In this document: positions 12,511 to 58,195 of the stretch, in pieces
Layout of the letters: each line of letters begins with the position of its first letter
Numbering within the stretch: the stretch's first letter is position 1
Sequence record: OR352939.1
Source: Escherichia phage AV109
Length of the DNA: 64,000 bases
Reading direction: 5' to 3' (one strand)
Translations under genes and position numbers: made by a program
Notes under the pieces: generated by a model
What the model saw: the letters and a program-made list of their open reading frames with translations, nothing else
Told to the model about the DNA's origin: nothing
Databases searched by the model: none

Positions 12511-12528
12511 AAGCTCCCGAAGGAGCTT
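12511..12528 (-). other. UUCG-tetraloop hairpin (AAGCUCC-UUCG-GGAGCUU) between HNH endonuclease gene and glycosyltransferase gene
   Basis: Inverted repeat with cgaa loop on plus strand; overlaps stop codon of the HNH gene. Confidence 0.4.
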
Positions 12529-13339
12529 AGGACATCCAACACATTTTATAACCTTTGCAGGTTCTGTTAGGATTATTTAATGCTTTCAATATATTAGAAG
12601 ACCCTATATCTAAATACTCCCTTAATTCATAAAGATAGTTAAAATCAATAGTTTCACCTGTTTTTACACTTGTGATTCTTATAGGCCTTCTTTCATATTT
12701 AGATTTATACAACTCTCTAGTCTTAGCTTTAGTTTCTTCTGACCTAGGAGTGTATGGTTTAAATCCTTTTGTTTTAAATGTTTCCATTCTTGATTTAGTT
12801 ATTTTATCCTGGTGTTCTTTTGTTTTTACAGGTGCTTTTCGCCCATTCTCCCAAGATAACTTGTTGGCCTGTATTATTTTATCTATTGCTTCTTGCGTAT
12901 GAGTTTTACCATAAAATGGATTTAATTCGCCTATACGTTGTGAAGCAATATGTGACATTAATTCTCTTGTTGCTTTAGTATGTTTTTTACCTTTAAATGG
13001 ATTGCCATTTTTAGCAATCCATTCTTTCATAAATCTAGAGTGCTCTTTAGAGAATTCTTGTTTAAGCCAATCATAATCTCTAGAATTTCTAGCTCCCATG
13101 TAAAAAGCTCTAATAGCCATAAGCATAGAACGGTTCTTATGAATTTTATAAAGCAATAAATGGGCGATAAAATGCTCTCTAGGGGTCATTTTAACTAGAT
13201 TTGATTTAGCATTACTCCCACCCATAGATTTAGGCAAAATATGGTGAGTTTCAGTATAATTAGGAATAGTGCTGCGGTTTTTAGCCGCAGCGATAAGTTT
13301 ATCATAAATTTTACGATAATTCATTATCCTAGCATCCAA
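12527..13339 (-). CDS. HNH homing endonuclease with NUMOD3-like repeats (Mob-like)
   Basis: 270 aa; HHILPKSMGG...N core and repeated NPFYGK.HT / NPFKGKKHT modules; occupies the mobA slot beside gene 39. Confidence 0.65.
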   Translation of the reverse strand: MDARIMNYRKIYDKLIAAAKNRSTIPNYTETHHILPKSMGGSNAKSNLVKMTPREHFIAHLLLYKIHKNRSMLMAIRAFYMGARNSRDYDWLKQEFSKEHSRFMKEWIAKNGNPFKGKKHTKATRELMSHIASQRIGELNPFYGKTHTQEAIDKIIQANKLSWENGRKAPVKTKEHQDKITKSRMETFKTKGFKPYTPRSEETKAKTRELYKSKYERRPIRITSVKTGETIDFNYLYELREYLDIGSSNILKALNNPNRTCKGYKMCWMS

Positions 13340-15162
13340 TCTTTACGGAGTTCAGGGTCGTTACCCATGAGCATTTCAAATAGTTCTTTCCAATTTTCAG
13401 GAAGTTTAACTACGTCGTACACAGGGTTTTGAATCATTTCTTTATATTCATCCCGCTGAAGTGAGCCCAATCCCTTGATGTATCGAATACTATGCTTAGG
13501 CAGTGTATCTTTAACTTCTTCATACTCAGCTACAGTATAAAACCATTTTTGAGTTTTGCCAATTTGTGCAATAATTACAGGCGTTTTAACAAAGCGAATA
13601 CGTCCTTGTTCAAACAATTCAGGCCAATTACTAAAGAAAGCAAGCAAAGCCGGATAAATACTTCCAAGGCCGTCATGATCGGCATCGGTCATAATTGCAA
13701 TATTACGGTAGTTCGTATTCTCTGCCTTTTCACCAAGAATAAGACCCGTGATAGCACAGATATCAAAGAGCTCTTTGTTCTTCATCATATCGGCATATGA
13801 CATACCCCAGCTATTCATCACCTTACCACGTAATGGGAATCCGCCGTGTAGTTCACGGTCACGAACATCAATGAGATAACCAATTGCCGAATCACCTTCT
13901 GTTAAAAACAATGTCGTATCTGCATCTTTACCACATTGGTTAGCTTTAATATGCTTATGAACCTTAGCTTTAGTTGCCTTTTTAGCTGCTTTAGTTTCTG
14001 CAGCCTTTTCTGCTGCCAATTTACGAGCTAATGCGGCTTCAATTATAGGCATTAAAACTGCTTCAGAATTCAAAATATTTTTTGCCAATTTTTTTGTATC
14101 TAATTTAATATGCGTCCGAATTTCGCCATAAGGACTTGTTAAACGCTCTTTGGTTTGGGAATCAAAACGAAGGTTCTTCATTCCACGAACGAACATTAAG
14201 AGAGTGAGACATTCCTTGATTCGCGCTTTAGTCACGTCGATTTTATATTTGCGTTTAATAGCCGGAATTAATTCTTCGCTAATGTCGTCCATCACACATT
14301 CAATGTGATGACCACCGTTTTTGGTATGGATGTTATTCACATAAGTTAAATGACGGAAGCCATCTGGTGACCGTCCAATGGCAATAGAGCATCCGTCTTG
14401 TTCTTGAATGATGGTCTCTTCATCAAATTGTTTAGCAAACTTCTTAAAGTTACCTTGAATCTTTTTGCCATTAAATTTAAATTCAATACCAGGATAAACG
14501 ACCGCCAATGTTTGGAGCCGGTCTATAGTAATATCTTGGTATATTTTTTCAAATTGATTCATTTCAAAATGTGAGAAATCAGGAATAAACTCGACCTTAG
14601 TACCGTTGTTTTTAGACGGCTTAGATTTCCAAGAAATATTATCAGCGTTATTAGAACAATTAACGGTCAATTCATTTTTACCATCTGAAGTAGTGCCAAC
14701 AAAAGAGACAGAAAAAATATTTGTTAATGAAGAACCGACACCGTTTTGTCCACCCGTAACACGTTCTTTGTCGTCACCAAAGTTGCCACCGGCTTTTGTA
14801 CGTGTCCACGCCGCAACTGGTCCTGGAATTTCTTCTCCTTCAGGAGTAATAACTGTTTCTTGAGGAATACCTCGACCATTATCTTCAACAGTCACTTTAT
14901 TAGAATTTAAATCAATACTAACGGAAATTTTATTAGCATATTTGAAATTGGTTCGAATAGCTTCGTCTACTGAGTTGTCAATAATTTCATCAATTAATTT
15001 GAGAACACCTGCAACATATTTAACCTTTTTAAATTCACCGAATAGGAAACGTTCTTGTTCTTCATTGGCAACACTTCCAATATACATGCCAGGACGCTTC
15101 AAACAATGCTCTTTATCAGATAGCATTTCAATTTTATTATCAATCATTAGATTTTCTCTCAA
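13324..15162 (-). CDS. 39: DNA topoisomerase II large subunit gp39 (GyrB-like), unsplit 39+60
   Basis: 612 aa continuous ORF with GyrB-type ATPase N-terminus (HCLKRPGMYIGS, DNGRGIP) and TOPRIM region; no separate gene 60 or bypass gap. Confidence 0.9.
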   Translation of the reverse strand: MRENLMIDNKIEMLSDKEHCLKRPGMYIGSVANEEQERFLFGEFKKVKYVAGVLKLIDEIIDNSVDEAIRTNFKYANKISVSIDLNSNKVTVEDNGRGIPQETVITPEGEEIPGPVAAWTRTKAGGNFGDDKERVTGGQNGVGSSLTNIFSVSFVGTTSDGKNELTVNCSNNADNISWKSKPSKNNGTKVEFIPDFSHFEMNQFEKIYQDITIDRLQTLAVVYPGIEFKFNGKKIQGNFKKFAKQFDEETIIQEQDGCSIAIGRSPDGFRHLTYVNNIHTKNGGHHIECVMDDISEELIPAIKRKYKIDVTKARIKECLTLLMFVRGMKNLRFDSQTKERLTSPYGEIRTHIKLDTKKLAKNILNSEAVLMPIIEAALARKLAAEKAAETKAAKKATKAKVHKHIKANQCGKDADTTLFLTEGDSAIGYLIDVRDRELHGGFPLRGKVMNSWGMSYADMMKNKELFDICAITGLILGEKAENTNYRNIAIMTDADHDGLGSIYPALLAFFSNWPELFEQGRIRFVKTPVIIAQIGKTQKWFYTVAEYEEVKDTLPKHSIRYIKGLGSLQRDEYKEMIQNPVYDVVKLPENWKELFEMLMGNDPELRKDWMLG

Positions 15163-15823
15163 ATTGCATGACTATATTTTTGTATGAACCTTCCGGAAAT
15201 CCACGTTTAATGCTTTCTTTAGCAAATTTCCCAACCTTTGGTTTATCCAATTCTAACCATAATTTATATAAAGCAGATTCATATTCCCATACAGGACTTT
15301 TACGATTTTTAAGCCCACACTTTATAAGCGCTTCCTTTGTATGTTTCTTATTATAAAATGGATTGTTTTTGCCACTCATTGCTTTAGAATGTTCCGGGCG
15401 CTTAATTCCATACATCGGATTAAGATCGCCTTTCTTGATAACGGATTGTAGTTCAATAGTTTCTTCAGAGTGATTGTGTCCATAAAATGGATTTAACTCT
15501 TTTGAAACATCCATACCAAAGCACCCATCGACTGTGGCATAAGACATGTTGAAAAATTTTTCAGATTTAACCACATTATGCAATTTCTGGTAATACAACT
15601 CACAAAACGTCGCTTCTTCCCGTGTATCAAATTCGCCAATAATACATGAATCAAATAAATGAGGATTATCTTTTATCTCTTTATCATAAATTTGTTTATA
15701 TTTTTTCGACTTTACCGTACCATGATAGTGATTGTTTGTATGTTTATCAAGATAAGTAGACCCTATATAAAACGGTGGCAACTTATCGCCTGTGTATATT
15801 GTTAAGTATGTTATGTATTTCAT
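15140..15823 (-). CDS. GIY-YIG homing endonuclease (Seg-like) with NUMOD3 repeats
   Basis: 227 aa; N-terminal YITYLTIYTGDKLPPFYIGST (GIY-YIG variant); NPFYG..HSEET and NPFYNKKHT repeats; paralogue of 50245..51048. Confidence 0.65.
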   Translation of the reverse strand: MKYITYLTIYTGDKLPPFYIGSTYLDKHTNNHYHGTVKSKKYKQIYDKEIKDNPHLFDSCIIGEFDTREEATFCELYYQKLHNVVKSEKFFNMSYATVDGCFGMDVSKELNPFYGHNHSEETIELQSVIKKGDLNPMYGIKRPEHSKAMSGKNNPFYNKKHTKEALIKCGLKNRKSPVWEYESALYKLWLELDKPKVGKFAKESIKRGFPEGSYKNIVMQFERKSND

Positions 15824-15856
15824 AAAGGTATTCTATCATCCGAAATCTAAAGCAAA

Positions 15857-15872
15857 AAGGGCCGAAGCCCTT
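15857..15872 (-). other. UUCG-tetraloop hairpin (AAGGGC-UUCG-GCCCUU)
   Basis: Inverted repeat immediately after stop of 15871..16293. Confidence 0.4.
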
Positions 15873-16293
15873 ATTTAAATTTAATTTTCTGAAGTGCATC
15901 AATTGCAGCCAAACGCCCTTGTTCACTTTTAACTGTAACGACCACATCGCCTGATACGATCACCGAACCATCAACAAATTCTATAGAGCCTTTTTTGAAA
16001 TCGACAGCTGTATCTGGTTCCGGAACTTCTTCAAAGAATTTAAATTCTGCACCATAAAGCAGAATATCACCTTGCATACTAATGATTGTACGTCCAGGTC
16101 CATCGGTTTCAGCGGCAATAATCGAAACGCCGTAACCAATCATCTCTTCCACAATAAAATCTTTGGACAATAAAGTAGTATGCAGATTAGTATTAAGACG
16201 TTTACCAGTCGTATTAAGAATTCTCAAGAAATTATCTTCCTGTCCTTTGATAATACGATATTTCTTACCAACTTCAAAACCTTTAAAAGCCAT
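15871..16293 (-). CDS. Hypothetical protein (39.1 position)
   Basis: 140-aa ORF; AAGGG RBS. Confidence 0.45.
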   Translation of the reverse strand: MAFKGFEVGKKYRIIKGQEDNFLRILNTTGKRLNTNLHTTLLSKDFIVEEMIGYGVSIIAAETDGPGRTIISMQGDILLYGAEFKFFEEVPEPDTAVDFKKGSIEFVDGSVIVSGDVVVTVKSEQGRLAAIDALQKIKFK

Positions 16294-16295
16294 AA

Positions 16296-16475
16296 TTAAC
16301 CCTTCTTAAGTAAGTCGTAAAAACCACCGTTCACATGTTTAGGAGCAGAAACCCGACGAGTAGACAGACGATGACATTCAGGGCAAACATCGGTTTCTCG
16401 TTCAGAAATTCTTTTAATTTTTTCATATTCATGACCACAATCTTCAGATTGGCATTTATAGTCGTATAACGGCAT
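16296..16475 (-). CDS. Small zinc-ribbon protein (59 aa)
   Basis: Translation [59 protein letters not shown] has two CxxC pairs; start ATG overlaps upstream stop (TAATG); just under the track size cutoff. Confidence 0.45.
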   Translation of the reverse strand: MPLYDYKCQSEDCGHEYEKIKRISERETDVCPECHRLSTRRVSAPKHVNGGFYDLLKKG

Positions 16476-16906
16476 TATTGTTCCTTAAAGCGAGCTTTCA
16501 ACATTTGATACAAAGACCATGCCTGGTCGTTATTTTCGATAGTAATCGTCATCACCGGAAATTCAGACAATTCGTCAAGTTCACCAGAATCTTGCTCTTC
16601 GGACTCTTGATATGGATTTCCAACTTCGTCAAAGAACTCTGCTTCATTCGTGGAGAGCCAGATAAAGTTTTCATCAAGGATATCACCGCCTGTTGCGTAT
16701 CCAACCGTGCCAGTAGATGTCACAATTTTAGTAGGACGACCAAGATGGTCAACATCTAATACTTTAAATGGTTCCATGCCAAGACGTCGTGCATAAATCC
16801 CATTATCAGTGTGGTTTTTAATAAACTCTTCTTGGGCACGTTTATCTTTAAATTGGTACCATGAGTTAACGTGGAATTTATTAGCCATTAGTAAGTTTCC
16901 TTCCAA
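16475..16906 (-). CDS. Hypothetical protein
   Basis: 143-aa ORF; acidic C-terminal half. Confidence 0.45.
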
Positions 16907-17115
16907 TAAGTTGTACCGTTTTCAGTGATTTCACGGAAGATACCATAGATAGGCATTTCATCGCCGAGTTTTTCGTAAACGTAAACCACTTCGGTGTAGC
17001 ATAAAAATTCGGTCCAGTTTTTCTGTACAACAACTAAATCAGGATTAAACAGAACATCTTCAAACTCATCGATGTTTGAATCAGTAGTTACGTTTTTAAT
17101 GATTTGACGTTTCAT
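16888..17115 (-). CDS. Hypothetical protein
   Basis: Start placed at Met16 (MKRQIIKNV) with GAGGAGA RBS; the longer track ORF would run through the promoter module. Confidence 0.4.
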
Positions 17116-17142
17116 AATATTCTCCTCTTGTTTTGATAGGTC

Positions 17143-17173
17143 TATAGTATCATAGACCATAGTTGTTGTACAT
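17143..17173 (-). promoter_or_regulatory. Putative early promoter (TATAGT/TACTAT -10; TGTACA-type -35)
   Basis: Conserved GATAGGTCTATAGTATCATAGACC module followed by tgtaca. Confidence 0.35.
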
Positions 17174-17697
17174 CATTTTAGCAAAATAAAATCAACTTGT
17201 TCTGCCAATGAACGTCTAAACATTAATTGACAACTTCCGAGGATGAAATCAGGTGCTTCATAGACCGCGATGTAGTATCCTTTAGCTTTCAAGAGTTCAA
17301 CATCCACCTGGTCATCAAACCATGCATAAACCGCATCAACACTTTCAAATCCAAAATAGAACCCTTGAGCCCAATCTTCGTTCAATTCAAATGTGTGCTC
17401 AATTCTATAGTATCTTAAGATATTTTGTTCAAGGAGTTTGTCTTCATTTACTGTAGGACGATTAGGGACATTATAGTTGTCGCCGTGATGGTAGAAGTTA
17501 CCTGAGAGTATTCCATGCTTATCAAGGAACTCCCATGTTTCTTCAGAGTTGTCGGTGCCCGACCAACCGTATGGCGAGCGAGGTTCTTTATTCCAAGAGG
17601 TTTCCCAAATTCTGACGGCTTTACCATCTTCGATAGCAATTCCTGGTAATGATTCACGTTGAGTACAAAAACTACGTTCTACGCGATAAACTAACAT
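17173..17697 (-). CDS. Hypothetical protein
   Basis: 174-aa ORF; GAGGAGAA RBS. Confidence 0.45.
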   Translation of the reverse strand: MLVYRVERSFCTQRESLPGIAIEDGKAVRIWETSWNKEPRSPYGWSGTDNSEETWEFLDKHGILSGNFYHHGDNYNVPNRPTVNEDKLLEQNILRYYRIEHTFELNEDWAQGFYFGFESVDAVYAWFDDQVDVELLKAKGYYIAVYEAPDFILGSCQLMFRRSLAEQVDFILLK

Positions 17698-17752: not shown

Positions 17753-17756
17753 AATT

Positions 17757-44809: not shown

Positions 44810-45496
44810 TTAGAAGTCGTGAGTAGAATCGGCTTCCATCGCAATAACATAACTTACTTGAGAGCTTTCAAACTTGGCTGCAACTTTATCACCAGCTCCC
44901 CACAACATTACTTTATAGTTACCTGGCTGGATTTTCATATTAGCCATATTGATTACGAAGTTAAAGTTGTTAGAACCATCATAATCGGTAAGAGTCAAAG
45001 AATACTTAGGACGAGTTAGTCCTGAATCTTCAACTTTATTATAGCCATTGATAACAATTTTACCATCTTTATTTGTAATAGCAATTGTATCAATCTGAAG
45101 ACCACGTGAAACTCGAAGCAATTGTTGAAGGTCTTCAGCTTTAATTTCAGTAATCACAGAAGCTACTGGGAATTGAATTGGCTTATTAGGAAAAACAATT
45201 GTGCTCTTGTCAGCGGCAGGCCAATAAACTGTGGAACGTGTATCTGCAATTTTAATATTGCCATCAGTGTGCATTGAAATTTCAGCATCATCAGACACTA
45301 GACTCAAAATGCTTAAGAAGCTATTCAAATCATAAAGTGCTACGTCAAAATCAATTTCATCAGAGATATTTGCTTCCGCATAAGTGGTGCCATTAACTGC
45401 ACGAGTCATAATAAATTTACCTTGACTCAGCAGAATGCCAGAGTTAATAGAAGCGAAGTTTTTCAGAATATTTACGGTTTCACGGCTAAGTTTCAT
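44810..45496 (-). CDS. 45: Sliding clamp gp45
   Basis: 228 aa, identical length to T4 gp45; position after 44. Confidence 0.85.
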   Translation of the reverse strand: MKLSRETVNILKNFASINSGILLSQGKFIMTRAVNGTTYAEANISDEIDFDVALYDLNSFLSILSLVSDDAEISMHTDGNIKIADTRSTVYWPAADKSTIVFPNKPIQFPVASVITEIKAEDLQQLLRVSRGLQIDTIAITNKDGKIVINGYNKVEDSGLTRPKYSLTLTDYDGSNNFNFVINMANMKIQPGNYKVMLWGAGDKVAAKFESSQVSYVIAMEADSTHDF

Positions 45497-46392
45497 TTAG
45501 GTTTCCTATTAGCATAATAATTTGTCCAAGACCGGATAGCACCTTGGTATGATTCATCATTAAAACCATGCTGAATTGCATGTTTTCTAAATGTAATATA
45601 ACTTGGTTTTCCTAAAGCAATCCACAATTCCTTTAATTTTTGTTCATGAAATATCCATGTACCTCTAGCTTTAGATTTTCTGAATTTATCCTTAAATTCT
45701 TTGGTTGCATTTCTTTTCGAAGCTGCGATAGAGGCCTTTGCTCTATTTTCAGGTTTAGACCAATACAATGTTTTAGATATTTTTATTTTATCTTTAACAT
45801 TAGGAGAATTCATTATATCTTTAAATTTTAAAGCAAAATCTCTATCGCTAAACATTTTTTTAGAAAGAATAGAAACTTTCTCTCTTCGTTCTTTGGTCCA
45901 ATATGTTTTTTGAAATTCTCTAATTGCGTTTAAATGATTCTCCGACAATTTGCAATTTTTTCTAACACCGACGTAATCTTCGTTTATTTCGTTTTTAGAA
46001 AGTTTTACTATTTTGCCTGTTTTTAAATTTTTATACGGTGCATATCCTTTAGCTGATATTCTAGACTTCTCGTTAGCATAAGCCTTATTAAAATATTTTT
46101 CATTTGAAACGGCTTTAACATTGAGTTGGAATAGTCTTTCTATTCTTCTAGGGTCTAATGTGGTTTCGCCTAAAATTTTTACAGAATATTCGCCTTGGTC
46201 TATTAATCTGGTATATAAAGGAGAATACGAGGAATTAACACTACCGGTATATATTTTACCGGTAGAATCTTCAATAATATCCTTTCCATTAAAATGACAC
46301 GAAACTTTAGAACCTATATAATAACACGGGTATTCATTTTTAATCTCACGATTATAAAAGGTTATAAGATATATTAAATTCATAATTATCAA
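45493..46392 (-). CDS. GIY-YIG-like homing endonuclease (Seg-like), basic C-terminal DNA-binding region
   Basis: 299 aa; N-terminal LIYLITFYNREIKNEYPCYYIGSK (GIY-YIG variant); Lys-rich C-terminus; paralogue of 57374..58195; inserted between 45 and rpbA. Confidence 0.5.
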   Translation of the reverse strand: MIIMNLIYLITFYNREIKNEYPCYYIGSKVSCHFNGKDIIEDSTGKIYTGSVNSSYSPLYTRLIDQGEYSVKILGETTLDPRRIERLFQLNVKAVSNEKYFNKAYANEKSRISAKGYAPYKNLKTGKIVKLSKNEINEDYVGVRKNCKLSENHLNAIREFQKTYWTKERREKVSILSKKMFSDRDFALKFKDIMNSPNVKDKIKISKTLYWSKPENRAKASIAASKRNATKEFKDKFRKSKARGTWIFHEQKLKELWIALGKPSYITFRKHAIQHGFNDESYQGAIRSWTNYYANRKPK

Positions 46393-47060: not shown

Positions 47061-48749
47061 TTATGAAACAGTCATTACCGTAAATCGTCCAACTTTGCTC
47101 ATTTGAAGATGTTGTCCATAAGCTTGTGGGTCATGGTCTCTGTGACTAATTATAAACACGTTTGCATCGGTTAGAGAGTTAAGAATTGTTGAAATAGCTT
47201 TAATACCTTCAGAATCAGTCGCGGAATCCATGACTTCGTCCATAATTAATGTATTGATTCTAACACCAGAGACCTTTTCAGCAATATCTCGCCATGTAAA
47301 CAACAACGCGATATCGATACGTGCTTTTTCACCTTGACTAAATGAAGCATAACTGAACTCTTCACGACCACGTGATTTTATAGATTCATTGAATTCTTCG
47401 TCAATAGAAAACACGTAATCAGCTTCCATGATTTTAAGATAATGGTTAATCTGCTTGTTGAACAGAGGCACATATTTTTTAATGATAGCACCTTTAATAC
47501 CAGAATCTTTTAACATATCTGTGATAATACCACGATGGTATTTTTCAAGAACGATATCCGATTTTGTTTTAATGATTTTATCAAGTTCTTTTTGAAGCAA
47601 AGCTATCTCATCGGCATGGTCGATAAATTCCGCTGAGGCTTGTTCTATTGCAGCTTTAACTTTCTTAGCTTTATCAATAGTGGCAATCATTGCTTGTTTC
47701 TTGGTACGAATATCAGATGCAAGGTCCTGTTTAGTCTTAACATTAGCTCTATATTCGTCCACTAGGACACTCAGATTATCTCTGTGGCAGGTAAGTTGCT
47801 CGAATGAGTGATTACATTCATGAAGCTTATCGGTAATCTTAGAGACAATAGGATCACCCTGGTGCAACTGTGATGCGCAAGTAGGACATGTACCGCCATC
47901 ATGATACATCTTAATAACTTTGTTGTATGAGTCAATTTTAGATTTAATCAAGAATGCTTCTTGTCCTATCTTGTTGAATGCCTCAGTAGGGTCTTCATCA
48001 AGAACGATATTAAGTAGTCGCTCATTAGCTTCTTCGATTTCTGCTTTTAATGAACGAGCTTCTTTAGCTAGGTCGTCATACATATTCTGTAGACGCGCTA
48101 CATTATCACCAGATAATTTCTTTTGACGTTCGATATTCTCGTTATAAATCTTAATTTGTTGGATAACACCATCTTTCTTGGCATCGAGAACTTGTCCCTG
48201 GGAATTAAGTTCTCGAACTTGAGACTTATTGATTTTATCCATTTCAGCGAGTGTGCCGACTTCTAAAAGGTCTTCGACAAGTTTTCTACGAGCAGGGGTG
48301 CTAAGAGCCATGAAAGGGGTATACCCTGCCGTCCCAAGCACAACGATCTGTTTAAAAGACGCGTATGACATTCCGATGCTACGTTCAAATTCTTCTTGGA
48401 AGTCACGACTGCTGGCAGATTCATCAAGACGAACACCGTCAACGGAGATTTCGAAAATATTGGGCTTTTGGCCACGTTTAATGAAGTATTTTTTATCATC
48501 GAATTCCATCCAAAGCTCAACTAAGAGCTCTTTCTTGTTCGTGCTATTAATGATTTGTCCTTTCTTAACATCACGAAATGGTTTACCGAAAAGTCCGAAA
48601 GTAATGGCTTCTAACATCGTAGATTTACCACCGCCATTTTTACCAGTGATTAATGTCTTTTGAACTTTATCTAATTGGATATCAATAGGATTCCCACCTA
48701 CCGACATGATGTTTTGATAACGAACACGATTTAATTTAAATGATTTCAT
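47061..48749 (-). CDS. 46: Recombination nuclease subunit gp46 (Rad50/SbcC-like ATPase)
   Basis: 562 aa; Walker A GKNGGGKST, coiled-coil middle with CPTC zinc hook, C-terminal Walker B LIMDEV. Confidence 0.9.
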   Translation of the reverse strand: MKSFKLNRVRYQNIMSVGGNPIDIQLDKVQKTLITGKNGGGKSTMLEAITFGLFGKPFRDVKKGQIINSTNKKELLVELWMEFDDKKYFIKRGQKPNIFEISVDGVRLDESASSRDFQEEFERSIGMSYASFKQIVVLGTAGYTPFMALSTPARRKLVEDLLEVGTLAEMDKINKSQVRELNSQGQVLDAKKDGVIQQIKIYNENIERQKKLSGDNVARLQNMYDDLAKEARSLKAEIEEANERLLNIVLDEDPTEAFNKIGQEAFLIKSKIDSYNKVIKMYHDGGTCPTCASQLHQGDPIVSKITDKLHECNHSFEQLTCHRDNLSVLVDEYRANVKTKQDLASDIRTKKQAMIATIDKAKKVKAAIEQASAEFIDHADEIALLQKELDKIIKTKSDIVLEKYHRGIITDMLKDSGIKGAIIKKYVPLFNKQINHYLKIMEADYVFSIDEEFNESIKSRGREEFSYASFSQGEKARIDIALLFTWRDIAEKVSGVRINTLIMDEVMDSATDSEGIKAISTILNSLTDANVFIISHRDHDPQAYGQHLQMSKVGRFTVMTVS

Positions 48750-49229: not shown

Positions 49230-50248
49230 TGTGTTGCCTCAATATAAAGTTCGTTGGAATATTTGACCAGCGCTTCTCTGTCTTCATCTGAGATATCTGG
49301 AATCGCGTCAATATATTCTTTAATGATATCTTGAAGTGATTTAATCTCGATTTCCTGGTCGTCATCAGATTCAACACTGTTATCAACTTTAGAAACCATA
49401 CGAAGAGAGTGAACTACTTTTTCAAGTTCAGATTCAAACTTAGTCAACTCTGAATCAATTTCTGATACTATAACACGTACGGCTAGATTAGTATAATCAG
49501 AATAATTGATTTTGCCTTTAAATGGATAAGTGATTCGTCGATGCCATGTTGTTTCATTAGGAATAAATTCCATACGTTCAACATCAGTGTCAAATACCCA
49601 GAATCCGCGAGGGTCGTTCTCATCACCTGCAGTAAGGGTCCATGGTGTCCCAATATATTTGACGTTAGCAGCTTCAGAGATTGTGTGGAAGTGGCCAGAC
49701 CAGACTTGTTTATAGGTCTTTAAGAAATCAGGTTCAAGCCCATGAGACTTCATTCCTTTATAGAAATAGAAGCCATTTAATTCCCAGTGCCCAACACAAT
49801 ACGCTGCAGAAGAAGTCTTGATGTGCTCTAAGATTTCACCTGTATTTTCTTCACACATCCATGGAATCAAATCAATCAAGCACCCATCAAAATCTACTGT
49901 AGTTGGCTTATCATAAATTATTACGTTTTTACGATGGCTCAATAATTCTTGAACAGTGTTAGGATATAAGGTTGTTTTATAAAAGAGATCATGATTCCCA
50001 AGTATTGTATGGACTGTTATACCAGCGGCTTCCACCAAATCAAACATTTCACGCGTGAATTCCATACAACGTTGTGTGGTGTGGGCTCTGACATCAAATG
50101 TATCACCATATTGAATCCATGTTGTTATTCCATTTGCGACGGAATAGTCGATCATTTGTCTGAAACCGTCACGTTGTATAGCTTGAATCCAATCGTCGTC
50201 TTTTTTGACGCCTAGATGCAAATCGCCTATATTAAGTATTTTCATCAC
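49226..50248 (-). CDS. 47: Recombination nuclease subunit gp47 (Mre11/SbcD-like)
   Basis: 340 aa; metallophosphatase motifs (LNIGDLHLG, GDTFD, GNHD). Confidence 0.9.
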   Translation of the reverse strand: MMKILNIGDLHLGVKKDDDWIQAIQRDGFRQMIDYSVANGITTWIQYGDTFDVRAHTTQRCMEFTREMFDLVEAAGITVHTILGNHDLFYKTTLYPNTVQELLSHRKNVIIYDKPTTVDFDGCLIDLIPWMCEENTGEILEHIKTSSAAYCVGHWELNGFYFYKGMKSHGLEPDFLKTYKQVWSGHFHTISEAANVKYIGTPWTLTAGDENDPRGFWVFDTDVERMEFIPNETTWHRRITYPFKGKINYSDYTNLAVRVIVSEIDSELTKFESELEKVVHSLRMVSKVDNSVESDDDQEIEIKSLQDIIKEYIDAIPDISDEDREALVKYSNELYIEATQ

Positions 50249-51048
50249 ATACCTTTAAATTTGGAGTAAATTATATTGTGGTACGATATATCAGGAAACC
50301 CTTTATCGACCGCAATTTTTCTAAACTTATTAGGACTTATTTTACCACACTCCATCCATAATGCAAACAACTCGTCAAAATGCTCATATGCTGGACCTCG
50401 ACGAGCTTTTGACACAGCAGCACTTATGCGAGCCTTTTTCTCAGAATCAAGGTTTTTAAGAGAATTACTTATTTTATTTTTTTGCTCTTCTGAATTGAAG
50501 GTGCCTTTTTCCCAGCCTAAAGGTTGGCTTCCTTCATGGAACATTTTTCTTGAAGTTCCATTGGTATACCATATTTTACCTTTATTGTGCCCTGATGCTT
50601 TATATTTTGGTGAGCGTCCTTTTATAAATCCTTCAGGTATAGTAGGAGCAAATGTTTGTTCAAGGGTTTCTGGGTTATACGAATGTATGTTATTTTTGGC
50701 GTTATGAGACCCATATAATGGGTGATTTTTACCAGAAACATCACGCCCAAAGAAACCAGTTGGTGATGCCAAAGACATATTCATATACAAAGGATTTTTA
50801 TGAGCTTGAACTCTAATTTGATAGTCCTTTTCCACCTTTAAAGCTTCTTCTCGTGTTGGATGTTCGCTCAAAATACAAGAATCAAACAACGTAGGATTTT
50901 CTAAAAGTTCTTTGTTATAAATTTTACGATAGGCTTTAGATAGAATAGTACCATGATACCCGTTTAAATGTTTTTCTAAGCTAGTCGAACCTATGTAAAA
51001 AGGTGGTAGCTTATCTCCAGAATAAATTGTCAAATAGACTATAAACAT
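50245..51048 (-). CDS. GIY-YIG homing endonuclease (Seg-like)
   Basis: Start at ATG 51048 (MFIVYLTIYSGDKLPPFYIGST) with AAGGAG RBS; paralogue of 15140..15823; occupies the slot where T4 has 47.1/alpha-gt. Confidence 0.6.
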   Translation of the reverse strand: MFIVYLTIYSGDKLPPFYIGSTSLEKHLNGYHGTILSKAYRKIYNKELLENPTLFDSCILSEHPTREEALKVEKDYQIRVQAHKNPLYMNMSLASPTGFFGRDVSGKNHPLYGSHNAKNNIHSYNPETLEQTFAPTIPEGFIKGRSPKYKASGHNKGKIWYTNGTSRKMFHEGSQPLGWEKGTFNSEEQKNKISNSLKNLDSEKKARISAAVSKARRGPAYEHFDELFALWMECGKISPNKFRKIAVDKGFPDISYHNIIYSKFKGM

Positions 51049-51071
51049 ATATTTCTCCTTTGATTTAAGGA

Positions 51072-51102
51072 GATTATAACACGCCTTTAATGAAGCGTAA
51101 AC
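51072..51102 (-). promoter_or_regulatory. Putative early promoter for the homing endonuclease gene
   Basis: Minus strand GTTTAC (plus gtaaac 51097-51102) with TATAAT about 19 nt downstream. Confidence 0.35.
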
Positions 51103-51106
51103 AAAA

Positions 51107-51129
51107 AAAGGAAGCACTAGGCTTCCTTT
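51107..51129. terminator. Intrinsic terminator, strong on minus strand (9-bp stem + U7), also terminator-like on plus strand
   Basis: aaaggaagc actag gcttccttt; minus strand has the hairpin followed by UUUUUUUGUUU. Confidence 0.55.
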
Positions 51130-51193
51130 TGATATCGCCTAAGGCTTATAGGTCCTTAGAAATCTGGATGTTCATCTTCAACAAAGCTAGTAT

Positions 51194-51409
51194 TCATCGC
51201 TGCCACCATTTTTTAAGTTGATGTGAATCTACCCATACCTTCGCTACAGGCTCAATATTAAAAATACCATCGGACGTACGTCCAATCATTTTGTATTCGG
51301 TTTCAGATTGCTTGATACAAATATCACCATAAGAGCGAAGTCTAAAAGCGGCTCCTACTAGAAGCCGTTTAAACTTTGTTTGAACTAGCGCCATTAATGA
51401 TGTCCTCAA
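51194..51409 (-). CDS. Hypothetical protein
   Basis: 71-aa ORF. Confidence 0.4.
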   Translation of the reverse strand: MRTSLMALVQTKFKRLLVGAAFRLRSYGDICIKQSETEYKMIGRTSDGIFNIEPVAKVWVDSHQLKKWWQR

Positions 51410-53199: not shown

Positions 53200-53228
53200 A
53201 TTATACTCTGCTCTCAAGAGTTTGTAAA
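53200..53228 (-). promoter_or_regulatory. Early promoter (TTTACA -35, N17, TATAAT -10), second copy of the 35-bp element found before ndd
   Basis: 53192..53226 identical to 6284..6318; -10 inside dyad GAGAGCAGAGTATAATGCTCTC. Confidence 0.5.
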
Positions 53229-53231
53229 TCG

Positions 53232-53432: not shown

Positions 53433-53570
53433 TTTGCGTTCCAGGCCCCATTTTCATCGATGAACTTAATCCAGTCATTTACAGACCATTTAGTTGTATC
53501 ACCCTTTGGATTAACATTTAAAGTATATAATCCCTGCTTAAAAAGCATTCGTTTGATATTCATAATTTCC

Positions 53571-53891
53571 TCAACTATAACGATAACATTCGTTAGCTTT
53601 ACGTTTGGCTTCAGTATGAGAAGTATTATAATCATACTCTTCTTTACTGTAAACATCTTTTTTCAACTTACGAACTTCTTTGCGGAGTTGTCGATTCATT
53701 TCGTTCTTGACTTCAGAATCAACGCCTTTCATACGTTTCCATTTATCTGAGCGGAAGATGTTTTCAACCATGTCTTTGTGGCTAACACCGTCAGGAGCTT
53801 TACGCTTACCAAAATAGTCGTAATCGCGAACTTTCAAATCTTTACGACGATATGTTTTACCCATAAGTACCTCAGAGGTTGATTGATACAA
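53571..53891 (-). CDS. Hypothetical basic protein
   Basis: 106-aa Lys/Arg-rich ORF. Confidence 0.4.
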   Translation of the reverse strand: MYQSTSEVLMGKTYRRKDLKVRDYDYFGKRKAPDGVSHKDMVENIFRSDKWKRMKGVDSEVKNEMNRQLRKEVRKLKKDVYSKEEYDYNTSHTEAKRKANECYRYS

Positions 53892-54120
53892 TGCGTTTGA
53901 TAAAATTCACTTCACTTACTGAAAGGTCTTTAAGACCGATTGATTCTAAACGCTGAATAAAAGTCAACATTGGGATATAGTCCCAATGTGTTTTAGACGT
54001 TTGATAAGTACGGACGCCATTAGCAATTTCAACGTTCAAATCGGAAATGGTAATGAATATCAGACGTTCGTTATTTACATTAAGAGATAGAACAACTTTC
54101 TTTGAATCTAAACTAATCAC
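53872..54120 (-). CDS. Hypothetical protein
   Basis: 82-aa ORF. Confidence 0.4.
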   Translation of the reverse strand: MISLDSKKVVLSLNVNNERLIFITISDLNVEIANGVRTYQTSKTHWDYIPMLTFIQRLESIGLKDLSVSEVNFIKRIVSINL

Positions 54121-54299
54121 GGCTTAATTTCCTTCGCAATTGAACAGAAGATACCACGGTCACAAAGCATTTCACCAATTTCTGGATATTTGATTGAACG
54201 GTACCAAACATCCAGGCTTGAAACTCTGGTTATCTGTACTGCATTACCGTTGACAGAATAGTACTGGTCAACCTTAATTTCTTTATCTTCAATTGTCAT
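54117..54299 (-). CDS. Hypothetical protein
   Basis: Start at internal Met (MTIEDKEIKV) with GAGGAAA RBS; the upstream part of the track ORF contains gtaaac promoter-like sequence. Confidence 0.35.
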   Translation of the reverse strand: MTIEDKEIKVDQYYSVNGNAVQITRVSSLDVWYRSIKYPEIGEMLCDRGIFCSIAKEIKP

Positions 54300-54464
54300 T
54301 TTATTTTCCTCTATAGTAGATGGTTTAATCTTAACACATCTATCGAGGATGTAAACTGTTTTATGAAAATATTTTTGATTTGAGAGGGGCACAAGGAGAT
54401 AGTGAAGTGAAGATTCCAATGGATTATATTAGAAATGAGATAAAGAAGACCAGGCGGCACCTGG

Positions 54465-54773
54465 TCAATCTTCTATGATATCAGAGTCGTATCCTAATGA
54501 AATCAAGGACTTTTTAAACTCTGCAATATTCTTTTGTTTCTTATCATTTAAAAATATGACAGGATAACGAATATTAAGTGAAGTGAATCCTGCACGTTTA
54601 GCAAGAGATACGATTAAAGGACGGTCATATTCAATCTTACCATTATTAGTGAGGACTTTATAAAATGTATAAGGAGCATTGAGCTCCTTTAAAAGTTTTG
54701 TAACAGTATAACATCCTGGACAACGTCCAACTTCTTCAGGGATGCCATAAATTTCAATCTTGTTGTGTTCCAC
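54465..54773 (-). CDS. nrdH: Glutaredoxin-like protein NrdH
   Basis: 102 aa; CPGC redox motif near N-terminus; precedes nrdG/nrdD. Confidence 0.6.
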   Translation of the reverse strand: MEHNKIEIYGIPEEVGRCPGCYTVTKLLKELNAPYTFYKVLTNNGKIEYDRPLIVSLAKRAGFTSLNIRYPVIFLNDKKQKNIAEFKKSLISLGYDSDIIED

Positions 54774-54775
54774 AA

Positions 54776-54988
54776 TTATTCCTTGCCAAGAACAGAATTC
54801 AGTTTATTAGTAATTTTGTCCAAACGTTCATTGAATTCGCTGGAGGATAAACCCTTTTCCGGAGAAATTAAACTAATCACGAAAAATACACCAGTAAAAG
54901 GAATAAGAAAAATAGCTCCAACTGCCATAAACAAAAAGAACGTTACAGTTGTAAGAAAATCAGCTAAACCTTTACGAAATTTGTACAT
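54776..54988 (-). CDS. Small membrane protein
   Basis: 70 aa with two hydrophobic segments. Confidence 0.4.
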   Translation of the reverse strand: MYKFRKGLADFLTTVTFFLFMAVGAIFLIPFTGVFFVISLISPEKGLSSSEFNERLDKITNKLNSVLGKE

Positions 54989-55098
54989 ATTTACCCTTAA
55001 TTAACTAAGAATTGATAATCATTAAACTATATTGCGAATAAAATTCTGGACCAAAACGAAAAATCATATCATTTATAGTATCCATAATGTAATTCAAT

Positions 55099-55569
55099 TT
55101 AATCATGTTTCCACACCCCATCGGTATTTGACCAAAGTCGCTGATTATCTGATCCTCGCCACAGTTTTTTGGTCGGAAGATTTTTCTCATACTTCCCATC
55201 AATAATAACATCAACATATTTAAGCATTTCTAGTTGTTTAATATCTTCAAACTTATATCCTGTCCACAACCAAATGCTTTTATTGGGATAAAGATTTTTT
55301 ACTGTTTGAACAATGCAATGAATAACATCTCGGTTATCAGGATAGAGAGGGTCACCTCCGGTTATAGTTAATCCTTCTATATAATCATTATTCAAACATT
55401 CAATTAATTGTTCTAGTGTTTCACCAGTGAATGGAATACCATTTCTAGCATTCCATGTTGATTTATTATAACACCCTTCGCATTTATGCAAACAACCTGT
55501 AACGAAAAGAACGACCCTGCATCCAGGGCCATTCACAAAATCGCAAGGATAAAATCTATCATAATTCAT
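55099..55569 (-). CDS. nrdG: Anaerobic ribonucleotide reductase activating protein NrdG (radical SAM)
   Basis: 156 aa, same length as T4 NrdG; Cys-rich N-terminus (CLHKCEGC). Confidence 0.85.
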   Translation of the reverse strand: MNYDRFYPCDFVNGPGCRVVLFVTGCLHKCEGCYNKSTWNARNGIPFTGETLEQLIECLNNDYIEGLTITGGDPLYPDNRDVIHCIVQTVKNLYPNKSIWLWTGYKFEDIKQLEMLKYVDVIIDGKYEKNLPTKKLWRGSDNQRLWSNTDGVWKHD

Positions 55570-57383
55570 TGGTGTTTAACCCTATGCATTATTTCTTTAT
55601 TTTTACCGAGATTAAATCCGCGTTCGTTCGGATTTCCCAAATAACCGCATGTTCTTCTTATGGTGTTCATCTTTTTAGGATCAGTTTCTCCACAGATAGA
55701 ACAAACAAATCCGTTTTCAGTAGGAGTCATTTCATGGGTACTTCCACATGTAAAACATTTATCTACTGGCATATTAACACCAAAATAATCTAAATGCTGT
55801 GCAGCATAATCCCACACGGCCTCAAGACCTTTTAAGTTATTTTTCATATCAGGAAGTTCAACATAAGAAATGTGACCACCTGTCGCAATGAAATGATACG
55901 GCGCTTCACGAGAAATCTTTTCAAACGGAGTAATATTTTCTTCTACTGAAACGTGGAAACTGTTAGTGTACCAGCCTTTATCGGTAACATCTTTTACACT
56001 TCCATATTTTTCTGTATCAAGTTTACAGAAGCGATAACAAAGGTTTTCAGCAGGAGTAGAATACAAACTAAAAGCAAAACCAGTTCTTTCAGTCCACTGT
56101 TTAAGATGAGCATTCATTTTAGTTAAAATTTCTTGTCCAATATCACGACCGACAAGAATATTCAATTCATGAATACCGATGTATCCTAAAGACACTGAAC
56201 TTCTACCGTTTTTAAATAGCTCAATTATATCGTCATCAGGTTTAAGACGAACCCCGAATGCACCTTCTTGGTAAAGAATAGGAGCAACAGTCGCTTTAAC
56301 TCCTTTTAAGGAACTAATTCTACACATCAAAGCTTCAAAACACAGGTCCATTCGTTCATTGAATAATTCAACAAATTTCTGTTCATTGAACTGTGTTCCA
56401 ATATAAGAATCTAATGCGATACGAGGAAGATTCAGTGTTACAACGCCGAGATTATTACGACCGTCAAGAATTTCATTTCCAGTTGAATCTTTCCATACGC
56501 TCAAGAAACTACGGCAACCCATCGGAGAAACTGGAACTGAAGAACCGGTAATAGCTTTATTATTCTTAACTGAAATAATGTCAGGATACATTCTTTTGCT
56601 TGCACATTCTAACGCAAGTTGTTTAATATCATAGTTTGGATCATCTTTATAAAGATTAACACCTTCTTCAAAAAACATAACAAGCTTAGGGAAAATAGGA
56701 GTTATTCCATCACGTCCAAGGCCTTTAATGCGGTTTTTAAGAATTGCCTTCTGAATCATTCGTTCAGTCCAGTCAGTTCCCGTACCAAATGTAATTGTCA
56801 CAAAAGGCGTTTGTCCGTTTGAACTAAAGAGAGTGTTTACTTCATATTCATAAGCTTGGAATGCATCGTATACGTCTTTTTCTGTTTTAGATTGAGCATA
56901 ATTCAGAATGTCTGGTATTTGCCATTTTTCTGCATCTTCAACATGTTTAGCGTATGTGCGTTTAACATAAGGAGAAAGAACTTTATCGACATTCGCAAAT
57001 GTAGTTCCGCCATACTGGTGTGAAGCAACTTGTGCAGTAATTTGTGCCATAATTGCAGTAGCAACGCCAATAGATTTAGGCGTTTCAATTTGAGCATTGC
57101 CTAATTTAAATCCATTCTCAAGCATTCCTTTTAAATCTACTAAACAGCAATTAGTAAAAGGCAATGATATACTATAATCTAAATCGTGAAAATGAATTAA
57201 TCCGACATTATGAGCATTTACAATATGGCTCGGAAGAATACTACAAGCGATATGTTTAGAAACAATACCGGCCATTAAATCTCTTTTTGTTGGAAAGACA
57301 CGAGAATCTTTGTTGGCATTTTCGGTATTTAATTCTTTATCTTTATTTGAAATAAAATTTAAAACATCTTTCTCTAAAGACAT
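55566..57383 (-). CDS. nrdD: Anaerobic ribonucleoside-triphosphate reductase NrdD, uninterrupted
   Basis: 605 aa continuous ORF; C-terminal glycyl-radical motif RRTCGYLG and zinc ribbon CFTCGSTHE...CSICG. Confidence 0.9.
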   Translation of the reverse strand: MSLEKDVLNFISNKDKELNTENANKDSRVFPTKRDLMAGIVSKHIACSILPSHIVNAHNVGLIHFHDLDYSISLPFTNCCLVDLKGMLENGFKLGNAQIETPKSIGVATAIMAQITAQVASHQYGGTTFANVDKVLSPYVKRTYAKHVEDAEKWQIPDILNYAQSKTEKDVYDAFQAYEYEVNTLFSSNGQTPFVTITFGTGTDWTERMIQKAILKNRIKGLGRDGITPIFPKLVMFFEEGVNLYKDDPNYDIKQLALECASKRMYPDIISVKNNKAITGSSVPVSPMGCRSFLSVWKDSTGNEILDGRNNLGVVTLNLPRIALDSYIGTQFNEQKFVELFNERMDLCFEALMCRISSLKGVKATVAPILYQEGAFGVRLKPDDDIIELFKNGRSSVSLGYIGIHELNILVGRDIGQEILTKMNAHLKQWTERTGFAFSLYSTPAENLCYRFCKLDTEKYGSVKDVTDKGWYTNSFHVSVEENITPFEKISREAPYHFIATGGHISYVELPDMKNNLKGLEAVWDYAAQHLDYFGVNMPVDKCFTCGSTHEMTPTENGFVCSICGETDPKKMNTIRRTCGYLGNPNERGFNLGKNKEIMHRVKHQ

Positions 57384-58195
57384 AATTCTAATTTATCCTT
57401 TTGAAATTCTTCGTCTAAATATGGGTTCCAACCCATTTTAAACCTTTTGATGAAATTATCAATTCTAAATTTCGGTAAATTTAACTCCGCAAAAATAGAT
57501 GATTTACTTTTAAAATCTGGACCTAAATAATCATATAAAATTTCTGCGTATTTTAACCATAATATATAAGTACCAGATTTAATTGCGTTCGGAGTTTTCC
57601 AAGGTTTTACACCATACATCGGATTTCCACTTCCTTTATGCCTGATAGAAGATGAAATTCCAATTTTAATTTTAGCTTCCTTTGTATGCGAAAATCCACG
57701 ATGCGGATTTTCTTTCCAGTATTTTTTAGCAGCTTCTGATATTTTCTTTCTGGCTAAATTAGTATGATGCTTTCCATAAAATCCATGATTTTTGCCTTTA
57801 TTACGATTTCTTTTAATCATGGTTATTGATTGCTTTTCTCTAGTTTCTTTAGAAGGAGAAATACCATATGTCGTAAATTTGCCATCAGCATATGCTAAAT
57901 TAAAATACTCTTTATTCCATACATCTTTTTCTATATTCTTTTGAAATTCAGCTTCAATGCTAGTTATTTGTTCATCTCCGACTAATTGAAAATATAATAT
58001 TTCAACTTTCGGCGTTTCTTTCAATAAGGCTTTTTGAAATTCGGAAGATGACGAAGACGAATAATAAAATTTACCATTTTTATCAATAATATTCGTTCCA
58101 TCAAAAGTGCAATTGGTTTTACTTCCAATGTAATAATATGGTGGGGTTTTAGCATTAATTCTATTAATAAATGATAGTTTATATACTACATTCAT
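57374..58195 (-). CDS. GIY-YIG-like homing endonuclease (Seg-like)
   Basis: 273 aa; N-terminal VVYKLSFINRINAKTPPYYYIGSK; paralogue of 45493..46392; inserted between nrdD and gene 49. Confidence 0.5.
   Translation of the reverse strand: MNVVYKLSFINRINAKTPPYYYIGSKTNCTFDGTNIIDKNGKFYYSSSSSSEFQKALLKETPKVEILYFQLVGDEQITSIEAEFQKNIEKDVWNKEYFNLAYADGKFTTYGISPSKETREKQSITMIKRNRNKGKNHGFYGKHHTNLARKKISEAAKKYWKENPHRGFSHTKEAKIKIGISSSIRHKGSGNPMYGVKPWKTPNAIKSGTYILWLKYAEILYDYLGPDFKSKSSIFAELNLPKFRIDNFIKRFKMGWNPYLDEEFQKDKLELCL

Follow-up and report, generated by a model that had tools for sequence, protein, structure and literature searches.

Free-standing homing endonuclease genes (HEGs) of bacteriophage T4 encode enzymes that cut in a neighbouring gene, hundreds of bp away, with co-conversion and marker exclusion as the outcome, and many of these genes are promoter-less cassettes (PMC2988022). 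One of them encodes SegG, a GIY-YIG enzyme whose gene stands between genes 59 and 32 and which cleaves gene 32 (PMC2988022, citing Liu et al. 2003). In the present work, a stretch of 64,000 nucleotides (nt) from Escherichia phage AV109 (sequence record OR352939.1), hereafter called the window, was analysed for genes of this kind. Five were found, and they are designated H1 to H5 in coordinate order. By analogy with T4, we estimate at roughly 85% the probability that they are independently acquired free-standing HEGs of the T4 Seg and Mob kinds, which would have spread by intronless homing with co-conversion of the adjoining DNA.

GIY-YIG homing endonucleases have an N-terminal domain of about 90-100 amino acids (aa) with two Tyr and a Gly, a Glu (E75 in I-TevI), an Asn (N90) and an Arg (R27). 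They make site-specific double-strand cuts in the HEG-less allele, leaving 2-nt 3' overhangs. Among the T4 Mob enzymes, MobE targets nrdB and MobA nicks the topoisomerase gene.

H3 and H5 resemble SegG. Their catalytic domains are 36% (H3; over 138 aa, E 5e-14) and 40% (H5; E 6e-26) identical to that of SegG, with the N-terminal 'PPYYYIGSK' block in common, and the nuclease domain is followed by a basic C-terminal DNA-binding region, in which NUMOD3 occurs in H5 only. Like segG, both genes directly precede an essential replication gene, and a distant cut with co-conversion would apply to them as well. They differ from SegG in their sites (49/nrdD for H5 and rpbA/45 for H3, versus 59/32) and in their predicted targets, nrdD and gene 45. 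Moreover, the C-terminal halves are unrelated, since neither matches SegG past about residue 130 and the identity between H3 and H5 is 22%.

H2 and H4 are comparable with T4 SegA to SegE and with I-TevI, which their family matches at the profile level over the whole catalytic domain. The predicted structure of H4 can be superposed on the I-TevI catalytic domain, and NUMOD3 modules are present. In contrast to these enzymes, H2 and H4 form a divergent subfamily with a 'TIY...FYIGS' motif containing an 8-residue spacer; no Arg is aligned with R27, R66 being found elsewhere in H4, and the Pfam GIY-YIG model misses the whole family.

The product of H1 shares with the T4 Mob proteins an MNYxKIY N-terminus, a THHILP...N...EH HNH core and NUMOD3, and with MobA an association with the gene for the large subunit of topoisomerase II. 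Unlike mobA, H1 is placed after an unsplit 39+60 gene rather than inside it, with no bypass element, and unlike the Mob family as a whole its predicted target is the last 45 or so codons of gene 39.

Finally, in T4 x T2 marker exclusion (PMC2988022) and in the ICP1 phages (PMC10448857), HEGs stand at the edges of sharply bounded mosaic tracts, as they do here. The tracts reported below differ from those systems in that they were deduced from natural genomes alone, and in that one cassette spans T4-type and RB69-type phages, a pair described as non-recombining (PMC6024577, PMC2993671). Mechanistically, there is no departure from the established biology of the T4 Seg and Mob enzymes.

Census of the nuclease genes

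By megablast, the window belongs to a Mosigvirus, an RB69-like member of the Tevenvirinae. Escherichia phage AV114 (OR352944.1) is 99.5-100% identical to it, and phages AV115, AV116 and AV118 are also very close. All genes at the five HEG sites are on the minus strand, as are the tracts and motifs whose coordinates are given below. In the order of transcription, the region of gene 39 reads cef, goF, 39.2, ORF005c, H2, gene 39 (a 39+60 fusion), H1, the ORF003c homologue, rIIA.1 and rIIA. The block at higher coordinates begins with gene 49, H5, nrdD and nrdG, and includes further on 55, a-gt.5, a-gt.4, a-gt.3, H4, 47, 46.2, 46.1, 46, 45.2, rpbA, H3, 45 and 44.

When positions 8865-60309 were compared with RB69 by blastn, insertions of more than 100 bp were confined to the five HEG sites. 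No sixth paralogue was detected among all six-frame open reading frames (ORFs) of at least 50 aa in the window, and the two window ends hold conserved non-HEG genes only. RB69 has none of the five genes (0/5), in agreement with its HEG entry, 'None', in Table 5 of PMC2993671. The density of five HEGs in 46 kb compares with six in the homologous T4 region. In addition, the G+C content of the five genes is 28.6-34.8%, versus 36.7% for the window.

An earlier note, made from the letters of this stretch, had proposed at least five HEGs, one HNH and four GIY-YIG-like, that interrupt conserved synteny. All five ORFs are indeed found on the minus strand where the note had placed them, apart from a corrected start for H1 (ATG 13324), and the gene order that they interrupt is intact in RB69 at these sites. 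As to number, the blastn comparison and the ORF census give exactly five in the window. PHROG matches, hhalign and conserved catalytic columns likewise bear out the assignment to one HNH and four GIY-YIG nucleases. The record of AV114 labels two of these genes 'homing endonuclease' and three 'hypothetical protein', and a literature search retrieved no characterisation of the H1-H5 enzymes. The sequences are already public, and the enzymes are uncharacterised members of the well-known Seg/Mob kind.

Nuclease signatures of the five proteins

H1 (12527..13324, 265 aa) is a Mob-type HNH gene. Its longest ORF reaches back to TTG 13339; the start is most likely ATG 13324, from which translation would give the N-terminus MNYRKIY..., as in T4 MobB, MobD and MobE. 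The protein matches phrog_655 (E 3e-56) and contains NUMOD3 in two stretches (36.4 bits for a Pfam cutoff of 20.4). In blastp, E values ranged from 1e-19 to 6e-26 for T4 MobB, MobE, MobD and MobA, with 45% identity to MobB over 116 aa (E 6e-26) and 33-36% to MobE and MobD over about 200 aa. The HNH block T26-H27-H28 ... N42 ... H51 aligns with all four T4 proteins. H1 was also considered as an orthologue of T4 mobA and rejected: the two proteins are 70% identical over the 47-aa HNH core, and there is no similarity beyond it.

For the Seg-type proteins, the alignment with T4 SegA-G that the earlier note had recommended was carried out with MAFFT, I-TevI and I-TevII being included. The motif columns of H2 to H5 read (T/V/L)(I/V)Y and (F/Y)YIGS, and the catalytic Glu and Asn columns are kept in all four proteins. 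The pairwise motifs that the note had pointed out are real: YLTIYxGDKLPPFYIGST is found in the genes at 15140 and 50245, and YYIGSK in those at 45493 and 57374. Within the H4 family, Y9, Y18, G20, E73 and N90 are invariant in 105 homologues; in the H5/H3 family (27 homologues), Y5, Y22, G24 and E81 are at least 90% conserved and N99 is invariant. Near-invariant Arg residues occur at other positions, R66 in the H4 family and R12 in the H5 family.

H2 and H4 match the same family, phrog_10820 (E 2e-44 and 2.5e-75, respectively), and H3 and H5 match phrog_7504 (E 2e-16 and 1.5e-33). In Pfam, only NUMOD3 exceeded its threshold, in H1, H2 (E 9e-12) and H5; H3 gave no Pfam hit.

With hhalign, the H2/H4 family (105 sequences) matched a profile of T4 SegA-E plus I-TevI over the whole catalytic domain (probability 96.4%, E 1e-9), and the H5/H3 family matched the H2/H4 family at 99.6% and SegA-E/I-TevI at 92.3%. 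Deep alignments were required for this, as three-sequence profiles were weak (68% and 21%). When PDB sequences were searched with the H4 family profile, only the I-TevI DNA-binding domain came up (E 0.09). The AlphaFold2 model of H4 had a mean predicted local distance difference test (pLDDT) score of 90.5, reaching 96-98 in the N-terminal domain, and a beta-beta-alpha-alpha-beta-alpha topology. Its top three Foldseek matches in the PDB were all the I-TevI catalytic domain (1LN0, 1MK0), with a probability of 0.96-0.99 and a target template-modelling score of 0.55-0.61. For H2 and H3, the fold is covered only through homology to H4 and H5. In their C-terminal parts, H2 and H4 are similar to the corresponding ends of T4 MobD and SegA, which fits the modular design of these enzymes.

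It was also observed that the H2/H4 family bears the label 'HNH endonuclease' in PHROG 10820 and in the GenBank records of HX01, LF82-4, Lutter and others. In view of the profile and predicted fold, which place the family in GIY-YIG, this label appears to be wrong.

Insertion sites and linked tracts

The sites were defined by junction comparison with HEG-less relatives, as the earlier note had suggested, and tracts were located by sliding-window comparison with HEG-bearing and HEG-less relatives. At all five HEGs, the adjoining essential gene contains a diverged tract. For H1, H2, H3 and H5 the divergence is one-sided: the far flank (the ORF003c-proximal side, ORF005c, rpbA and gene 49, respectively) is 96-100% identical to RB69 up to the junction. 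For H4, the upstream flank is diverged too. These diverged tracts are common only to carriers of the corresponding HEG. Such sharply bounded tracts are, at the sequence level, the signature expected of intronless homing with co-conversion.

Gene 39, a fused 39+60 gene for the topoisomerase II large subunit (13324..15147, 607 aa, start ATG 15147), is flanked by two HEGs. Upstream of it, H2 (15140..15823, 227 aa) overlaps the gene 39 start by 8 nt at its stop. The insert measures 658 bp (15161-15818) and occupies the 63-bp spacer that separates ORF005c from gene 39 in RB69. H2 is carried by HX01 and JM10 and absent from RB69 and p000v; orthologues of 65-78% identity stand upstream of gene 39 in other genera. 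The first 1.1 kb or so of gene 39 (14040..15147, codons 1 to about 370) forms a tract that looks foreign: it is 96-100% identical in the carriers HX01 and JM10, and 60-75% (nt; 52-82% at the widest) or 40-80% (aa) identical to the H2-less alleles of RB69 and p000v. Only 10 of 1341 matching phage records reach at least 95% over this tract, the others being at about 72% or less. The nearest allele of the gp39 N-terminal part, that of IME281 (from IMG/VR), was examined as a donor and rejected, since its 88% aa identity is accompanied by 76% nt identity; IME281 itself bears a 71% H2 orthologue at the same site.

Downstream, H1 starts within the gene 39 stop codon, the two being joined as TAATG. 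The site is a clean 800-bp insertion with respect to RB69, HX01 and JM10, and H1 is present in p000v. The linked tract covers the 3' end of gene 39 (13333..13470, codons about 561-607, about 130 bp); it is 100% identical in the carrier p000v and about 80-84% (nt) identical in the H1-less RB69, HX01 and JM10, while the next 600 bp of gene 39 are 96-100% identical in all alleles compared. With the H1 and H2 tracts in one gene, gene 39 is a three-part mosaic, which two unrelated HEGs would have made. All four occupancy states are found here among phages 92-100% identical in the flanks: neither gene in RB69, H2 alone in HX01 and JM10, H1 alone in p000v, and both in AV114-118.

H3 (45493..46392, 299 aa) lies between rpbA and gene 45. 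Its stop and the start of gene 45 overlap as ATGA, and at its other end it shares 4 nt with the stop of rpbA. It is absent from RB69 and LF82-4, and present but frameshifted in JM17 and G2285; orthologues of 59-62% identity occupy the rpbA/45 junction in several other coliphage and Shigella phage genomes. Its tract is at the 5' end of gene 45 (45377..45496, the first 40 or so codons, about 100 bp), which is 87% (nt) identical to RB69, versus 98-99% for the rest of the gene. The frameshifts in H3 are single-nucleotide indels, with a T missing from a T-run in G2285 and a T added to another T-run in JM17 (equivalent to window positions 45855 and 45905), and in both the ORF is split in two. These indels would be either independent HEG decay or homopolymer sequencing errors.

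H4 (50245..51048, 267 aa from ATG 51048; a longer ORF from GTG reaches 51117) immediately precedes gene 47 and overlaps it by 4 nt. Only four phage records match it at 99% or more, the next best being at 58%, and the next best among 5.8 billion proteins is at 63%. The first 400 bp or so of gene 47 (49860..50248, codons 1-120) have the appearance of a foreign tract: identity to HEG-less alleles is 55-75% (nt; about 65%) and about 60% (aa), and then rises to 98%. This tract is 100% identical only in AV114, AV115, AV116 and AV118, the next best match being 77.7%. Upstream, a replaced flank (51049..51385) is about 60% (nt) identical to RB69, JM17 and G2285. No a-gt.2 was found in the window by tblastn, and a-gt.3 (51194-51409; phrog_1648) is a diverged allele with 51% aa identity. 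By these comparisons, H4 has displaced a-gt.2 and brought in diverged alleles of a-gt.3 and of the gene 47 5' end.

The note had further supposed that H4 might mark the place of a lost glucosyltransferase gene. At this site, RB69, JM17 and G2285 are empty, gene 47 being followed by a 69-bp spacer and a-gt.2, with no a-gt; as these HEG-less relatives have no a-gt beside gene 47, the reading of H4 as a marker of such a loss is not supported. LF82-4 has a different family member there (56-73% nt) and has kept a-gt.2, and in T4 the interval from 47 to a-gt.2 contains a-gt and the HNH gene mobB. RB69 has been reported to contain arabinosylated hydroxymethylcytosine (arabinosyl-hmC) and to lack counterparts of the T4 glucosyltransferases, its candidate transferase being ORF003c (PMC6024577, PMC2993671). 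A homologue of ORF003c is present in the window.

H5 (57374..58195, 273 aa) lies between gene 49 and nrdD. Its ATG occupies the place of the RB69 nrdD ATG, which abuts the gene 49 stop, and its own stop and the start of nrdD have 10 nt in common. Linked to it is a seemingly foreign tract, the first 227 nt of nrdD (57157..57383, codons 1-76), which would travel with H5 as a cassette.

Some of the placements first proposed have to be revised in the light of these junctions. H1 is not in the 39/39.1 slot but at the opposite end of gene 39, where it separates 39+60 from the ORF003c homologue. It is H2 that occupies the 39.1/39 slot (39.1 being ORF005c in the RB69 nomenclature), and four positions had been given for five genes. 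The statement that most of the positions are unused in T4 is valid for the 39.1/39, 45/rpbA and 49/nrdD junctions and for the region downstream of the topoisomerase gene, where T4 has no HEG, but not for the 47-to-a-gt.2 interval, which T4 uses for a-gt and mobB; moreover, T4 mobA is inside the same topoisomerase gene.

The distribution of the five genes was then surveyed in 50,697 phage records using aa identity cut-offs. At 95% or more, H1 was found in 27 records, H2 in 9, H3 in 9 and H4 in 4, and H5 was found in 49 at 90% or more, while queries from the flanks matched about 140-220 records at 90% identity or more. All five genes show presence/absence polymorphism at fixed sites among close relatives, together with co-converted flanks. 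The presence of HEGs varies independently at each site among close relatives. The note had named two outcomes that would speak against it, namely that the proteins are not nucleases or that their placement is ancestral in all close relatives; in view of the signatures described above and of this sporadic occurrence, neither was seen.

The H5 cassette in two genera

H5 was also found in Yersinia phage fPS-2, a Tequatrovirus, at the same 49/nrdD junction. The H5 ORF of the window is 98.5% identical to that of fPS-2 (800/812). Over the first 227 nt of nrdD, the window is 95.2% identical to fPS-2, versus 64.5% to RB69 and 64.1% to T4. The flanks behave differently. In gene 49, the window is 81.3% identical to fPS-2 and 99.4% to RB69, and fPS-2 is 97.7% identical to T4; in the next 297 nt of nrdD, the identity is 88.2% between the window and fPS-2 and 97.6% between fPS-2 and T4. 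Since H5 and its nrdD tract are near-identical while the flanks are typical of each genus, the same cassette is present in two genus backgrounds. These comparisons indicate that the H5 cassette has moved between Tequatrovirus and Mosigvirus.

The HEG-less nrdD alleles of T4 and RB69 are 93-97% identical over the first 240 nt (window 57144-57383), whereas most other compared stretches of 39, 45, 47 and nrdD are 61-87% identical between these two phages. This conservation makes the nrdD 5' region a plausible H5 target shared by the two genera. According to published descriptions, RB69 cannot recombine with T4 (PMC6024577, PMC2993671), and a 2010 review saw no convincing evidence of such elements moving between genome types (PMC2993671).

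More generally, HEGs may serve as vehicles by which N-terminal modules of essential replication enzymes pass between T-even genera thought to be genetically isolated, a proposal that we hold tentatively and at a little short of even odds. Such modules would amount to some 370 codons in the topoisomerase large subunit, 120 in gp47 and 76 in NrdD. Gene 39, lying between two unrelated HEGs, would in that case be a three-part chimera formed in nature. The textbook example of a T-even phage free of HEGs is RB69, yet its close relatives carry five HEGs, one of them near-unchanged in a Tequatrovirus.

Glucosyl-hmC is established for T4 and arabinosyl-hmC for RB69. If the vehicle proposal is correct and fPS-2 and AV109 differ in modification in the same way, a SegG-like enzyme would cut both hypermodified DNAs, and homing would breach the T4/RB69 recombination barrier. 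The five HEGs offer a natural, sequence-defined system in which genus crossing by a HEG, the cutting of arabinosyl-hmC versus glucosyl-hmC DNA, and chimeric essential genes can be studied. In addition, AV114-type phages are used in biocontrol cocktails (PMC10844046), for which HEG-driven exchange with co-infecting phages would be relevant.

Two side observations concern nrdD. In JM10 (1258-2382) and fPS-2 (3858-4889), the gene is split by an insert with another HEG, comparable to the T4 nrdD intron, so that fPS-2 holds both this insert and H5. In the window, nrdD has another small patch at 56900-57050 (codons about 121-160), where identity is about 78-86% with RB69 and AV118 but 98% with JK42. 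No HEG adjoins this patch in the AV109 genome, and it represents extra mosaicism.

Proposed mechanism

In the proposed mechanism, upon co-infection with a HEG-less relative each enzyme would cut a conserved site in the essential gene beside its own insertion point. Gene 39 is predicted to be cut at its 3' end by H1 and in its 5' part by H2, gene 45 at its 5' end by H3, gene 47 in its 5' part by H4, and nrdD within its first 230 or so nt by H5. The break would be repaired by recombination from the HEG-bearing genome, and in this way the HEG would be copied along with the DNA between it and the cut. The carrier itself would be immune, because its own copy of the target region is the diverged allele.

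Each HEG lies in an intergenic spacer of a pre-existing early/middle operon. The four GIY-YIG genes stand immediately upstream of their predicted target gene and overlap its start codon. A regex scan for middle-promoter-like motifs returned eight on the minus strand of the whole window. One, of the MotA-box type, is just upstream of the H2 ATG (15830..15856), and its sequence is common to RB69, where it precedes gene 39. Two others are inside H3, at 45595..45621, some 100 bp before the ATG of gene 45, and at 45812-45837; all three are motif matches only. Promoters embedded in seg genes of T4 represent an arrangement resembling that of H3 (PMC2988022). Expression of the HEGs probably depends on phage promoters upstream of them and on translational coupling with adjacent genes, for which the start/stop overlaps, the position of the H5 ATG and the MotA-box-like motifs are supporting features. 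Overall, we infer enzymatic activity, cleavage sites and expression mode by analogy to T4 SegF, SegG, SegE, SegB and MobE.

Several results weigh against five active homing enzymes. Regarding the proteins, no Arg of H2 to H5 is aligned with I-TevI R27, and the Pfam GIY-YIG and HNH models stay below threshold in all five: the best PF01541 score is that of H4 (17.8 versus 22.6 bits), and H1 scores 16-16.6 bits with HNH models whose cutoffs are 21.4-27.5, which T4 MobB and MobE just pass. The model of H5 matched nothing in Foldseek. Regarding the tracts, that of H3 is so short that its target is poorly constrained. Among the 1341 matching phage records, no match of 95% or more to the gene 39 tract was found outside H2 carriers, and no donor of the gene 47 tract was found outside the four AV phages. 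The gene 39 and 47 tracts could in principle have arisen by ordinary recombination, the HEG only hitch-hiking. As for Pfam, T4 SegG and SegF have no hit either, and both are experimentally active GIY-YIG enzymes (PMC2988022); the Pfam misses are therefore no argument against nuclease identity.

Alternative explanations

The nucleases might be kept for the benefit of the phage, either by excluding co-infecting relatives, whose essential genes they would cut, or by providing embedded promoters or coupling for 39, 45, 47 and nrdD. We regard this as unlikely but worth weighing, and it is compatible with homing as the main explanation. All predicted targets are essential genes of replication or nucleotide metabolism, the HEGs overlap the downstream genes at their starts and stops, and MotA-box-like motifs inside H3 precede gene 45. 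In T4, HEGs cause the exclusion of T2 markers and embedded promoters favour retention (PMC2988022), and in the ICP1 phages nuclease genes are at the boundaries of genetic exchange (PMC10448857). However, HEG-less relatives are the majority and evidently fit, and H3 is frameshifted in two relatives that have not lost gene 45.

A less probable possibility is that some or all of the five are catalytically dead relics, retained because their deletion would harm neighbouring genes. T4 keeps a truncated relic, I-TevIII, annotated as defective (PMC2988022), and the missing counterpart of I-TevI Arg27 and the low Pfam scores of the catalytic domains could be read in this sense. Against relics, all five ORFs are full length compared with their homologues, the Tyr/Tyr-Gly/Glu/Asn and His-Asn-His positions are intact, active T4 SegG and SegF fail Pfam in the same manner, and the sporadic distribution and the cross-genus identity of H5 argue for recent activity.

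It is very improbable that the five genes were ancestral in Mosigvirus and deleted in RB69 and most relatives. HEG decay does occur, and the H3 copies of JM17 and G2285 have different 1-nt frameshifts. At the HEG-less junctions, however, the spacers or gene overlaps are short and intact, and RB69, T4 and many relatives have them in identical form; the HEGs are linked to flanking alleles only 55-75% identical to the genus norm. The H5 cassette, about 98% identical across genera with flanks at about 81%, and the low G+C content of the HEGs point in the same direction.

Lastly, that H2/H4 and H3/H5 are recent duplicates which jumped within this genome, as the earlier note had suggested from shared N-terminal motifs and as common PHROG families might suggest, is hardly credible and can be set aside, since the pairs have diverged to 38% aa identity for H2/H4 (58% in the catalytic domain, 34% in the C-terminal part) and 29-31% for H3/H5, with nt identity of about 53-54%, near background, since the DNA-binding parts at the C-terminus are dissimilar, as would be the case if the enzymes have different targets, and since each gene has far closer relatives at the same locus in other phages.

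Further differences between the window and related phages

The identity between the window and AV114 is 99.5% at 55500-59700, and the offset between the two sequences changes by 26 nt somewhere between 17.5 kb and 43.5 kb. Around 58700-58800, upstream of gene 49, the protease inhibitor gene pin and ORF087c are absent (RB69 47836-48386 is missing), pin being kept by many relatives. Also absent from the window with respect to RB69 are motB.1/ORF012c, 61.4, ORF075c and ORF082c.

The glycosyltransferase homologue at 11384-12484, which corresponds to the candidate arabinosyltransferase ORF003c of RB69, contains a central patch at 11865-12164 that is 75-89% identical to all four relatives compared, the remainder being 95-100% identical. 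This patch could correspond to variation in DNA-modification specificity or to another recombination patch.

At the 3' end of gene 46 (window 47160-47259), identity to the window is down to 61-63% in JM17 and LF82-4. In G2285 (3587-4303, plus strand), an extra ORF of 238 aa is found on the opposite strand between 45.2 and 46. The 45.2/46 region looks like another hot spot for mobile elements, which is empty in the window.

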